Part shown: positions 3,318 to 7,125 of the stretch, piece after piece
Layout: each line of letters opens with the position of its first letter
How positions within the stretch are numbered: position 1 is the first letter of the stretch
Assembly: GCF_058153355.1 (NCBI RefSeq)
Contig: NZ_CM177019.1
DNA: 64,000 bases
Direction: 5' to 3' (one strand)
The notes under the pieces: model-generated
What the model saw: only the letters and a program-made list of their open reading frames with translations
Told to the model about the DNA's origin: nothing
Databases searched by the model: none
Program-made: the position numbers and the translations under genes

Positions 3318-4781
3318 ATGTCTTTAGCAAAAGATAATATATGGAAACTATTGGCCCCACTGGTGGTGATGGGCGTCATGTTTCTTATCCCTGTCCCCGA
3401 CGGTATGCCACCGCAGGCATGGCATTACTTCGCTGTGTTTGTGGCAATGATTGTCGGCATGATCCTCGAGCCAATTCCGGCAACAGCGATCAGTTTTATT
3501 GCGGTTACTATTTGCGTTATTGGCAGTAATTACCTTCTCTTTGATGCCAAAGAATTAGCTGACCCAGCGTTTAATGCGCAAAAACAGGCGCTGAAATGGG
3601 GTCTGGCTGGTTTTTCCAGCACCACGGTATGGCTGGTATTTGGCGCATTTATTTTTGCATTAGGGTATGAAGTTTCCGGGTTAGGTCGTCGCATTGCCCT
3701 TTTCCTGGTGAAATTCATGGGCAAACGCACGCTGACGTTAGGTTATGCGATAGTCATTATCGACATTCTGCTGGCACCGTTTACACCGTCCAACACCGCG
3801 CGTACCGGGGGTACGGTTTTTCCGGTCATTAAAAACCTGCCGCCGCTGTTTAAATCATTCCCGAACGATCCGTCCGCGCGTCGTATTGGCGGCTATTTGA
3901 TGTGGATGATGGTCATTAGTACCAGTCTGAGTTCGTCCATGTTTGTCACCGGTGCGGCACCAAACGTGCTGGGTCTGGAGTTCGTCAGCAAAATTGCCGG
4001 CATCCAGATTAGCTGGTTGCAGTGGTTCCTCTGCTTCCTGCCGGTTGGCGTTATCTTACTTATCATTGCGCCGTGGCTTTCCTACGTGCTTTACAAACCG
4101 GAAATCACACACAGTGAAGAAGTAGCAACCTGGGCGGGTGATGAACTAAAAACCATGGGTGCGCTGACACGCAGAGAATGGACGCTGATTGGCCTTGTAT
4201 TGCTCAGCTTAGGTTTGTGGGTATTTGGCAGTGAAGTCATTAATGCTACTGCGGTAGGTCTGCTGGCAGTTTCGCTAATGCTGGCCCTGCACGTTGTGCC
4301 GTGGAAAGACATTACCCGCTATAACAGCGCATGGAACACGCTGGTCAACCTGGCAACTTTGGTTGTGATGGCTAATGGCCTGACTCGTTCTGGCTTTATT
4401 GACTGGTTCGCCGGTACCATGAGTACGCACCTGGAAGGATTCTCACCAAACGCAACGGTGATTGTACTGGTTCTGGTGTTCTACTTTGCGCACTACCTGT
4501 TTGCCAGCCTGTCTGCGCACACCGCAACCATGCTGCCGGTTATTCTGGCCGTCGGTAAAGGTATTCCGGGCGTACCAATGGAACAACTGTGTATCCTGCT
4601 GGTGCTGTCTATCGGTATCATGGGCTGTCTGACGCCGTATGCAACCGGTCCTGGGGTGATTATTTACGGCTGCGGCTATGTGAAATCAAAAGATTACTGG
4701 CGACTTAGTGCAATCTTCGGGGTGATTTACATCTCTATGTTGCTGTTGGTTGGCTGGCCGATTCTCGCCATGTGGAACTAA
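3318..4781 (+). CDS. citT: Citrate:succinate antiporter (DASS family)
   Basis: 487-aa polytopic membrane protein following citG; matches CitT. Confidence 0.9.
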   Translation: MSLAKDNIWKLLAPLVVMGVMFLIPVPDGMPPQAWHYFAVFVAMIVGMILEPIPATAISFIAVTICVIGSNYLLFDAKELADPAFNAQKQALKWGLAGFSSTTVWLVFGAFIFALGYEVSGLGRRIALFLVKFMGKRTLTLGYAIVIIDILLAPFTPSNTARTGGTVFPVIKNLPPLFKSFPNDPSARRIGGYLMWMMVISTSLSSSMFVTGAAPNVLGLEFVSKIAGIQISWLQWFLCFLPVGVILLIIAPWLSYVLYKPEITHSEEVATWAGDELKTMGALTRREWTLIGLVLLSLGLWVFGSEVINATAVGLLAVSLMLALHVVPWKDITRYNSAWNTLVNLATLVVMANGLTRSGFIDWFAGTMSTHLEGFSPNATVIVLVLVFYFAHYLFASLSAHTATMLPVILAVGKGIPGVPMEQLCILLVLSIGIMGCLTPYATGPGVIIYGCGYVKSKDYWRLSAIFGVIYISMLLLVGWPILAMWN

Positions 4782-4812
4782 TACGTTCGCCAAACGCTGA
4801 ATAAATCATCAC

Positions 4813-4847
4813 GCCCGCCAGGTAAGCCCACCTGGCGGGCTTTTTTA
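4813..4847 (+). terminator. Rho-independent terminator after citT
   Basis: GC stem cccgccaggt/acctggcggg followed by TTTTTT at 4841-4846. Confidence 0.8.
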
Positions 4848-4894
4848 TGATTTAATAGATAGTATTCAGTGTATGTATGAGTTCCACACCCATT

Positions 4895-5701
4895 ATGAAA
4901 GCATTCTGGCGTAACGCCGCGTTGCTCGCGGTTTCTCTGCTTCCCTTCTCTTTTGCCAACGCCGTGGCGTTGCAGGCAAAACAGTATGGCGATTTTGATC
5001 GCTATGTCCTGGCCCTCTCCTGGCAAACCGGATTTTGCCAGAGTCAACACGATCGAAATCGTAACGAACGAGATGAATGTCGCCTGCAAACCGAAACGAC
5101 CAACAAAGCTGATTTTCTGACCGTACATGGTCTATGGCCTGGATTGCCTAAATCGGTTGCTGCCCGTGGTGTTGATGAACGCCGCTGGATGCGCTTCGGT
5201 TGCGCTACTCGCCCAATCCCGAATCTGCCAGAAGCACGCGCCAGCCGGATGTGTTCATCGCCGGAAACTGGGTTATCACTGGAAACGGCAGCTAAACTAA
5301 GTGAAGTCATGCCAGGAGCTGGCGGACGTTCCTGCCTGGAACGCTACGAATATGCCAAACACGGTGCCTGCTTTGGTTTTGATCCAGACGCATACTTCGG
5401 CACGATGGTACGCCTGAATCAAGAAATTAAAGAGAGCGAAGCCGGAAAATTCCTTGCGGATAACTACGGTAAGACAGTGAGCCGCCGTGACTTTGACGCC
5501 GCCTTTGCCAAAAGCTGGGGAAAAGAGAACGTGAAAGCAGTTAAGCTAACGTGTCAGGGTAACCCTGCGTATTTGACTGAAATTCAGATCTCGATCAAAG
5601 CTGACGCCATCAACGCTCCGCTTTCTGCAAACTCATTCTTGCCACAACCACACCCAGGCAACTGTGGCAAAACCTTTGTGATTGATAAAGCAGGTTATTA
5701 A
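4895..5701 (+). CDS. rna: Periplasmic ribonuclease I (RNase T2 family)
   Basis: ORF 4877..5701; product recognised as RNase I from MKAFWRNAALLAVSLL (signal peptide), likely start ATG 4895. Confidence 0.9.
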   Translation: MKAFWRNAALLAVSLLPFSFANAVALQAKQYGDFDRYVLALSWQTGFCQSQHDRNRNERDECRLQTETTNKADFLTVHGLWPGLPKSVAARGVDERRWMRFGCATRPIPNLPEARASRMCSSPETGLSLETAAKLSEVMPGAGGRSCLERYEYAKHGACFGFDPDAYFGTMVRLNQEIKESEAGKFLADNYGKTVSRRDFDAAFAKSWGKENVKAVKLTCQGNPAYLTEIQISIKADAINAPLSANSFLPQPHPGNCGKTFVIDKAGY

Positions 5702-5850
5702 TCCTCTGATTTACAAAAGACGCTAATTCGTCTTCCATAAACTATGACGATTAAGATTTATACATAATGCGCTGCATTGAGGAATTCCCTGAATGTGACG
5801 CAAATCACTTCAAAGAGTGAGCAACAGTCAGTATCATCATGTGAGTTAAA

Positions 5851-5882
5851 CCCTCGCCGCCTGACGGTGAGGGTTTTCTTTT
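5851..5882 (+). terminator. Hairpin plus U-tract between rna and rnk
   Basis: 9-bp stem ccctcgccg/cggtgaggg (one G-U pair), 5-nt loop, then ttttctttt. Confidence 0.6.
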
Positions 5883-5930
5883 GGGTATGTTTATCTGCGA
5901 CACTCGCAGTACCGACGACATGGAGTAAAA

Positions 5931-6341
5931 ATGTCCAGACCAACTATCATCATTAACGACCTGGATGCCGAACGCATCGATATTCTGCTGGAGCAACCCG
6001 CCTATGCTGGTTTGCCAATCGCCGACGCGTTAAACGCAGAGTTGGATCGCGCCCAAATGTGTTCGCCAGAAGAGATGCCACACGACGTGGTGACAATGAA
6101 CAGCCGGGTTAAATTCCGCAATCTTAGCGATGGCGAAGTGCGTGTGCGCACGCTGGTGTATCCGGCAAAAATGACCGATAGCAATACTCAGCTTTCCGTT
6201 ATGGCTCCGGTAGGTGCCGCACTGCTGGGGCTGCGCGTTGGCGATTCCATTCACTGGGAACTTCCGGGCGGCGTTGCAACCCACCTTGAAGTGCTGGAAC
6301 TCGAATACCAGCCAGAAGCTGCTGGCGACTACCTGCTTTAA
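5931..6341 (+). CDS. rnk: Regulator of nucleoside diphosphate kinase (GreA/GreB-like)
   Basis: 136-aa ORF; sequence and position next to rna match Rnk. Confidence 0.85.
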
Positions 6342-6375
6342 TCCCATCTGCACAAGCGACAACTCGCTTTGCCCA

Positions 6376-6400
6376 GAGGATGCACTCGCATCCTCTTTCC
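6376..6400 (+). terminator. Rho-independent terminator after rnk
   Basis: Stem gaggatgc/gcatcctc with loop actc, followed by tttcc. Confidence 0.6.
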
Positions 6401-6696
6401 GCTCAAATATCAACCAGATTTATCATTTTGCTCTTAAGCACAGCATTCTAATCTGAACTGGTTATTCATCTGCGGAACCCCATATGAGCGAAGCTCTCAG
6501 TATCACTGCGTTTTATATATTCATAGCAGCTATTATTGTTGCTGCAGTGCTATACCTTGAACAACGCTGGTAGTACCTGGTTTTATTTATTTTCCAGATC
6601 AATCGCAAATTCAGATCGAATCAGCCTCGCAAATCATAGATTCATAATCAATAATGTGCTGTTATGTATACATGCAAAAACAAGGAGAGAATGCTT

Positions 6697-7125
6697 ATGT
6701 ACAAAACAATCATTATGCCAGTGGATGTATTTGAAATGGAATTGAGCGACAAAGCTGTTCGCCACGCTGAATTCCTCGCCCAGGATGATGGAGTTATTCA
6801 TCTACTTCACGTGCTACCAGGCTCAGCCAGCCTGAGCCTGCACCGTTTTGCCGCTGATGTGCGCCGTTTTGAAGAGCATCTGCAACATGAAGCAGAAGAA
6901 CGTCTGCAAACGATGGTAAGCCACTTCACCATCGATCCTTCCCGCATTAAACAACATGTCCGTTTTGGTAGTGTGCGGGATGAAGTTAACGAGTTAGCGA
7001 AAGAACTCGATGCAGATGTAGTGGTGATTGGTTCGCGTAATCCATCAATTTCAACCCATCTATTAGGTTCTAACGCCTCCAGTGTGATCCGTCACGCTAA
7101 TCTGCCTGTACTGGTCGTTCGCTAA
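6697..7125 (+). CDS. uspG: Universal stress protein G
   Basis: ORF 6664..7125; UspG recognised from [21 protein letters not shown], likely start ATG 6697; convergent with ahpF as in K-12. Confidence 0.85.

Follow-up and report, generated by a model that had tools for sequence, protein, structure and literature searches.

The interval between rna and rnk in Escherichia coli contains, in short succession, a CRP-like dyad, a possible -10 element, and a strong terminator-like hairpin, raising the question of what is transcribed from this interval and how expression of rnk downstream of it is determined. The original prediction, made from the sequence, was that the arrangement would produce a very short terminated RNA or act as an attenuator for rnk. 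The window, which is the whole stretch of 64,000 nucleotides that was analyzed, is from E. coli and carries citT, rna, rnk, and uspG, plus ahpF on the opposite strand. The product of rnk is a Gre-family protein that binds the secondary channel of RNA polymerase. Genes and the transcribed spacer are located as follows.

3318-4781: citT
4877-5701, plus strand: coding sequence of rna (RNase I), based on its open reading frame, Pfam Ribonuclease_T2, and the K-12 annotation; the mRNA extends to the terminator at 5881
5702-5881, plus strand: 3' UTR of rna, 180 nt, enclosing the entire rnk promoter and leader; the TTS at K-12 644017 is window position 5881
5931-6341, plus strand: coding sequence of rnk, based on its open reading frame, Pfam GreA_GreB and Rnk_N, and the K-12 annotation
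6664-7125: uspG

The rna-rnk spacer is 229 bp and collinear with that of K-12 MG1655 (K-12 coordinates are 649898 minus the window coordinate, on the K-12 minus strand), and positions 5777-5885 are identical between the two. Divergence from K-12 begins at ∼6405, just past the rnk terminator; ybdR, located between rnk and uspG in K-12, is missing here (window 6342-6663), and a diverged yldA-like small ORF is present at 6484-6573 (MSEALSITAFYIFIAAIIVAAVLYLEQRW vs. MAEAFYILIGFLIMAAIIVMAVLYLENHS of K-12 YldA). In the 3' flank of citT (4810-4848) there is a G+C-rich hairpin followed by a T-run (GCCCGCCAGGTAAGCCCACCTGGCGGGCTTTTTT), probably the citT terminator, overlapped by weak, sub-threshold Rfam matches (minus strand: STnc310 and ncr1175; plus strand: Trp_leader and isrB). 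A 6-bp hairpin without a U-tract (AAGACG-CTAATT-CGTCTT, 5716-5735) lies 15 nt past the rna stop codon; it is not kept even in the nearest Escherichia relatives (L002 and L003) and is therefore probably not functional.

The interval is already on record as an RNA element, one that ends just short of rnk.

5777-5885, plus strand: full-length match to Rfam RF01771 (rnk_leader, "Enterobacteria rnk leader"), by covariance-model score

The match scores 124.9 bits (E = 1.5e-24; model positions 1-109 of 109), relative to a gathering score of 50 bits, and is directly upstream of rnk on the same strand (start codon at 5931). All other Rfam matches in 4700-6700 (snoZ223, STnc310, and others) fell below the gathering score and were taken as chance. 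The family derives from Naville and Gautheret (2010, Genome Biol 11:R97), who counted greA/rnk among the genes with the most frequent 5' terminators, proposed an attenuator for rnk with an antiterminator said to be detectable, and cited Hfq co-immunoprecipitation of the E. coli rna-rnk intergenic region. The RefSeq genome annotation does not show the rnk leader element, and because of this omission the original prediction was made unaware of it. Its statement that no annotated sRNA lies here was wrong: besides the RF01771 match at 5777-5885, Salmonella sRNA10 and E. coli "5'rnk" are on record. The element, the binding of CRP, and the 3' end have each been published or deposited in a database, and the finding is in this sense already known. 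The locus and RF01771 are the same element, alike in position upstream of rnk and in the terminator, and the match is full length. They differ in that the first helix of the model coincides with a CRP site and lacks covariation, and in that no antiterminator is conserved across the 77 leaders compared here. About half of the RF01771 "RNA" model looks like promoter DNA when leaders are aligned. The sole new point is that Rfam helix 1 and much of the "leader" appear to behave as promoter DNA and not as RNA structure.

The comparison used 80 rnk loci taken from genomes of Enterobacteriaceae species, from which 77 distinct leaders were aligned; base pairs were counted on the Rfam structure for covariation. 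Upstream of the dyad, the leaders are unconserved (0.26 bits per column). From there toward rnk, conservation is confined to discrete elements: the hexamers and CRP half-sites carry 1.75-2.0 bits per column, 8-12 variable nucleotides separate the -10 element from the terminator stem, and the terminator and its U-tract are conserved. The block of CRP site, -35, -10, and terminator is immediately upstream of rnk even in genomes in which another gene, on the opposite strand, intervenes between rna and rnk. In Citrobacter and Kluyvera this is an alpha/beta-hydrolase gene (L005, 395-1225, minus strand; L057, 436-1362, minus strand), and in Enterobacter a flavin-reductase-like gene (L025, 641-1258, minus strand). 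The block stays with rnk despite the intervening gene; thus, the hairpin cannot be solely the terminator of rna. A further conserved block (TTTTTCGCC/ATAAAATTCA) is located between the inserted opposite-strand gene and the rnk CRP site.

The elements of this block, in the order in which a polymerase would meet them, have these coordinates.

5794-5809, no strand assigned: CRP binding site TGTGACGCAAATCACT, with one mismatch to TGTGA-N6-TCACA; corresponds to helix 1 of the Rfam model
5809-5814, plus strand: -35-like hexamer TTCAAA, from the promoter scan; shares one base with the CRP site
5832-5837, plus strand: -10-like hexamer TATCAT, from the promoter scan; 17-nt spacer to TTCAAA
5843-5845, plus strand: predicted transcription start, at the conserved A at 5844, placed by geometry
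5848-5876, plus strand: terminator stem-loop, with stem 5848-5859 paired to 5865-5876 (12 pairs, seven G-C) and a 5-nt loop
5874-5882, plus strand: U-tract TTTTCTTTT, from the sequence, with the 3' end mapped at 5881 (Yan et al. 2018, Supplementary Data 1)

The near-consensus CRP dyad that the original prediction placed at 5794-5809 is present, and published data bear it out. In CRP ChIP-seq of ETEC H10407, a peak assigned to rnk has the site AGTGATTTGCGTCACA, the reverse complement of 5794-5809, so that the proposed ChIP check is answered by an identical 16-mer under an in vivo peak (PMC4287617). By genomic SELEX, rnk was identified as a new CRP target in K-12 (PMC3105977). The bare pattern is not significant, with one match in the 64-kb window versus 1.96 expected and at least one match in 78 of 100 shuffles; the reality of the dyad rests on conservation and the published ChIP-seq, not on the pattern match. 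Half-site TCACT is found in all 77 leaders and TGTG[A/C] in 73 (TGTGA in 51 and TGTGC in 22), and the six bases between them are free to vary (0.61 bits).

Promoter hexamers are held in rigid register with the dyad. TTCAAA-17-TATCAT is the only promoter-like site that the scan reports in 5600-6500, and a simple scan independently recovers the same site in Salmonella, Enterobacter, and Kosakonia. The -35-like hexamer is TTCAAA in 65 of 77 leaders and TTCACA in nine. The tatcat sequence, originally described as a possible -10 element, fares well: TAT[C/G/T]AT, varying at the fourth position only, occurs in 76 of 77 leaders, 17 nt from TTCA[A/C]A. All 77 leaders have a spacer of exactly 17 nt that is, apart from its last three bases (CAG), free in sequence (0.56 bits per column), and no gaps occur between TGTG and TATnAT. 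A spacer of fixed length and free sequence, followed by a -10 hexamer that varies only at its fourth base, is a signature of a sigma-70 promoter. The CAG preceding the -10 (5829-5831) is almost invariant across genera and matches neither a TGn extended -10 nor the C(-13) typical of sigma-S promoters. A minus-strand promoter read from the reverse complement of CAGTATCAT was rejected, as by eye there is no suitably placed -35 and the variable base falls at position 1 of the hexamer. Likewise rejected was a leader peptide; the only candidate, an ATG-TGA at 5839-5844, is specific to E. coli and not conserved among the 77 leaders. There is a weak possibility of an additional upstream promoter in E. 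coli at CATAAT (5763-5768), a sequence not conserved in Salmonella or Citrobacter.

In promoters of class II that depend on CRP (galP1, for instance), the CRP site overlaps the -35 region and is centered at approximately -41.5. At rnk, TGTGA-N6-TCAC likewise lies over the -35 region, ∼41.5 bp before the predicted start, and is accompanied by a weak -35 and a good -10. From the center of the site (5801.5) to the first base of TATCAT is a distance of 30.5 bp, and the center is thereby predicted to be at -41.5 for a start at G5843 and at -42.5 for a start at A5844. Relative to the known class II promoters, the rnk start site and its CRP dependence are predicted, and the center may be at either of the two positions. 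We found no demonstration in the literature that transcription of rnk depends on CRP. Of the start and the 3' end that the original prediction expected to see mapped here, the 3' end is on record, at 5881, but for the start we found none near 5844 in the supplementary texts of Cappable-seq or SMRT-Cappable-seq, the latter a method that loses short RNAs. The supplementary texts of Cappable-seq (Ettwiller 2016) contain no entry at the coordinates expected for it, whichever genome version is used, and the start-site table may lie outside their scope.

The hairpin at 5848-5876 is the only terminator-like site found by scan on the plus strand between rna and rnk. In a 51-nt segment, it folds with -21.3 kcal/mol (z = -4.23), equaled by none of 200 shuffles. 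Across the 77 leaders, three of its 12 pairs show compensatory changes and 99.2% of cells are paired, so the 3' helix of the Rfam model is a Rho-independent terminator with covariation. In SMRT-Cappable-seq data for K-12 (Yan et al. 2018; PMC6131387), a reverse-strand transcript from 645034 to 644017 covers b0611 (rna). Among 37 reads from the rna start, ten stop at 644017, a TTS labeled as novel in that data set and corresponding to window position 5881, inside the U-tract; four end within 50 bp downstream; and two read through for a median of 470 nt, across rnk to its end (PMC6131387). These ends and the read-through reads identify the hairpin as the in vivo terminator of rna, one that leaks into rnk. 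The strong hairpin and U-tract of the original prediction are hence confirmed as an intrinsic terminator, with a 12-pair stem and a U-tract reaching 5882. Neither rnk nor any coordinate in 6435xx-6441xx appears among the curated and thresholded Term-seq 3' ends of Adams et al. (2021), suggesting that the RNA is rare in LB and M63-glucose.

Downstream of the U-tract, the scan found no promoter-like site in the 49 nt that precede the rnk start codon, so rnk depends on read-through. A small hairpin is present in this segment.

5895-5909, plus strand: small hairpin CTGCG-ACACT-CGCAG, from the sequence, just upstream of the rnk Shine-Dalgarno GGAG (5922-5925)

Stems like it, differing in loop and stem bases, are found in Citrobacter, Enterobacter, and Kosakonia but not in Kluyvera. 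In the read-through rnk mRNA, the hairpin may form a 5' UTR structure.

We favor, with moderate confidence, a reading in which a class II CRP promoter, nested in the 3' UTR of rna, fires into a promoter-proximal terminator and gives rise to an RNA of ∼38 nt and a read-through rnk mRNA. In this mechanism, cAMP-CRP would occupy the dyad at 5794-5809, as it does in vivo in ETEC and in vitro for K-12. The adjoining TTCAAA and its fixed distance to TATCAT would place the start near A5844, a class II sigma-70 geometry that conservation points to. Four nucleotides past the predicted start, the transcript would enter the 12-bp G+C-rich hairpin, followed by U4CU4, and be subject to intrinsic termination. 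Most polymerases would stop there and release the ∼38-nt RNA begun at the CRP promoter; the rna mRNA ends at the same place, as does Salmonella sRNA10 (∼100 nt). A minority would continue the further 49 nt into rnk. Output of rnk would then be the product of promoter activity, rising on exhaustion of glucose, and a roughly constant read-through fraction. With respect to the original alternatives, the attenuator is a proposal that RF01771 and its source paper share, but the very short RNA is predicted from the layout, and we found no mapped start for it.

Among competing explanations, the one that survives best is that the interval encodes a trans-acting, Hfq-binding sRNA, the sRNA10 of Salmonella and the "5'rnk" of E. 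coli, derived from the 3' UTR of rna or transcribed from a promoter further upstream, with AUCACUUCAAA as its seed and CRP as a secondary matter. In Salmonella, sRNA10 (sRNAscanner, Sridhar et al. 2010; Kroeger/Colgan annotation) is an RNA of ∼100 nt from the same interval and strand, gives a Northern signal only in late stationary phase, has a 5' end mapped by RACE, and is present in Hfq co-immunoprecipitation libraries (PMC2916834). The RACE end has two possible placements on the sequence, both upstream of the CRP dyad, implying that at least one transcript starts or is cut further upstream. Accumulation of sRNA10 is RpoS dependent, with six reads in an rpoS mutant versus 117 in the wild type (PMC4014581), a dependence that a plain CRP/sigma-70 promoter does not predict. 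Its expression follows an SPI2-like pattern and it is filed under a 3'-end location (PMC5001712). The rna mRNA ends at the leader terminator. In E. coli, the intergenic region is represented in Hfq co-immunoprecipitation, and 5'rnk has been seen in Hfq interactome studies, with fepA reported as a partner. The candidate seed is invariant. For fepA, the only target compared, pairing is at chance level: the longest perfect complement is 8 nt, compared to a shuffle mean of 8.6, and this candidate interaction was rejected.

Salmonella and E. coli are alike in interval, strand, terminator, and association with Hfq, with a reported identity of 0.77, but sRNA10 is ∼100 nt and its 5' end is upstream of the dyad. 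They differ also in that Salmonella has an additional upstream promoter-like sequence, TTGAGA-18-TAAAAT, that in E. coli lacks a good form. In S. enterica subsp. diarizonae (L020), it is created by a degenerate, tandemly duplicated copy of the CRP block, in which CCCGAATGTAGACTAAAATTCACT at 1309-1332 is paired with CCCGAATGTGAACTAAATCACTT at 1357-1379, i.e., 48 nt upstream of the real block, and in which half-sites are spaced by 8 nt as opposed to the 6 nt of the real block. The good promoter-like TTGAGA-18-TAAAAT so formed is at 1297-1326 and may drive sRNA10; alternatively, sRNA10 may be a processing product of the rna 3' UTR. Against a seed as the reason for conservation, neither the invariant 17-nt spacing to TATnAT nor variation confined to the fourth position of the hexamer is explained by it. 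Moreover, genera with an opposite-strand gene upstream have no source of rna read-through, and complementarity to fepA is no better than that of shuffled sequence. We consider it rather unlikely that a trans-acting sRNA accounts for the locus. Nevertheless, a longer RNA with AUCACUUCAAA (cf. UCACUUCAAA) as its candidate seed may act in trans, which would be compatible with a CRP promoter that fires into the terminator.

The classical cis-acting attenuator of Rfam and of Naville and Gautheret is improbable. It posits a leader of ∼105-110 nt that begins near 5777, forms a first hairpin (GAAUGUGA...UCACUUC), and switches between antiterminator and terminator to control rnk. That the RF01771 model extends over all of 5777-5885 at 124.9 bits, that its source paper reports a detectable antiterminator, and that the ∼100-nt Salmonella RNA has its 5' end upstream of the dyad are all in line with such a leader. 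But helix 1 of the Rfam model, made up of the CRP dyad and GAA/UUC, has compensatory changes in none of its seven pairs, and two of these pairs are disrupted in 23 and 24 of the 77 leaders, or about 30%, with the left arm varying and the right arm never. The sequence of the 5' helix (model positions 15-35) is thus present and coincides with the CRP dyad, but it does not behave as an RNA helix. The RNAalifold consensus of the 77 leaders has only GTG/CAC and the terminator, with no conserved structure that is mutually exclusive with the terminator. An extra hairpin in the minimum-free-energy fold of E. coli is built from the unconserved spacer. Between genera, sequence upstream of TGTG is unconserved, so no shared promoter is visible for a leader of this length; the fixed 17-nt spacer of variable sequence is a signature of a promoter, not of an RNA; and a conserved leader peptide is absent. 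As no antiterminator is conserved, the terminator downstream of the CRP promoter is predicted to be a fixed damper and not a switching, riboswitch-like attenuator.

CRP could instead be a repressor, or a roadblock to polymerases that started upstream of its site, and so lower transcription into the terminator and rnk. The start would be by read-through from rna or at a TAAAAT-like box that is kept upstream in many genera and that has a counterpart in E. coli.

5752-5757, plus strand: TAAGAT box, from the alignment; its function as a counterpart of the TAAAAT box is putative

If transcription starts upstream, as it does for sRNA10 in Salmonella, the CRP site falls inside the transcribed region. 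By eye, there is no good -35 for the TAAGAT box in E. coli. Between genera, the distance from the TAAAAT-like box to the dyad varies (16, 31, or 36 nt), and that from the dyad to TATnAT never does; the box is consequently not coupled to the CRP promoter. Furthermore, it is in late stationary phase that sRNA10 builds up, and cAMP-CRP should generally be active then. We therefore regard a roadblock as very improbable.

That the hairpin is merely the distal terminator of rna, with the dyad and TATCAT being chance or nonfunctional, has in its favor the rna TTS in the U-tract (the hairpin does end the rna mRNA at 5881), a dyad pattern that chance alone would produce about twice per 64 kb, and curated Term-seq lists that assign no 3' end to the rnk 5' UTR, but it is scarcely credible and already contradicted by the aligned leaders, given that CRP occupies the site in vivo, that dyad, -35, -10, and terminator form one rigid block beside rnk in 77 leaders, including those of genomes where an opposite-strand gene separates rna, and that the 49 nt before the rnk start codon have no promoter-like site.

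The arrangement favored here, a CRP promoter followed at once by a terminator, resembles that of the E. coli greA leader, whose RNAs are known as GraL (Potrykus et al. 2010). There, a leader terminator with an 11-bp stem stops two-thirds of greA transcripts, yielding RNAs of 40-60 nt, and the efficiency of termination is unchanged with growth phase (PMC2836576). In both cases, a Gre-family gene is behind a strong intrinsic terminator close to the promoter (stem of 11 bp in greA and of 12 bp in rnk), most transcripts are ended as very short RNAs, the gene relies on read-through, and no antiterminator switch is known, with the short transcripts of rnk being predicted. The two have no sequence similarity (according to Naville and Gautheret 2010). 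In addition, promoters of greA are sigma-70 and sigma-E and not CRP dependent, GraL RNAs have been seen on gels whereas the ∼38-nt rnk RNA is predicted, and the rnk terminator also ends an upstream mRNA, that of rna. The full proposition, in which the rnk leader is no folded regulatory RNA but a class II promoter and a terminator, gives a GraL-like RNA of ∼38 nt that hardly extends beyond the terminator hairpin, and sets rnk expression as CRP-driven initiation times a fixed read-through, strikes us as evenly balanced between true and false.

As a discovery, this is of little consequence, but it has two modest points of value. One is a caution for RNA-family databases, in that a palindromic transcription-factor site and promoter hexamers can enter a covariance model as a "helix". 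The other is that records are tied together, namely, the Rfam leader, the CRP ChIP-seq peak, the SMRT-Cappable-seq TTS, sRNA10, and "5'rnk", for which we found no such linkage in the literature. Joined, these records predict control by carbon source of Rnk, a poorly understood protein of the RNA polymerase secondary channel. If the proposed arrangement is true, the enterobacterial Gre-family paralogues greA and rnk would share a design of strong promoter and immediate terminator, and the Hfq-binding hairpin RNAs might themselves be the selected product.
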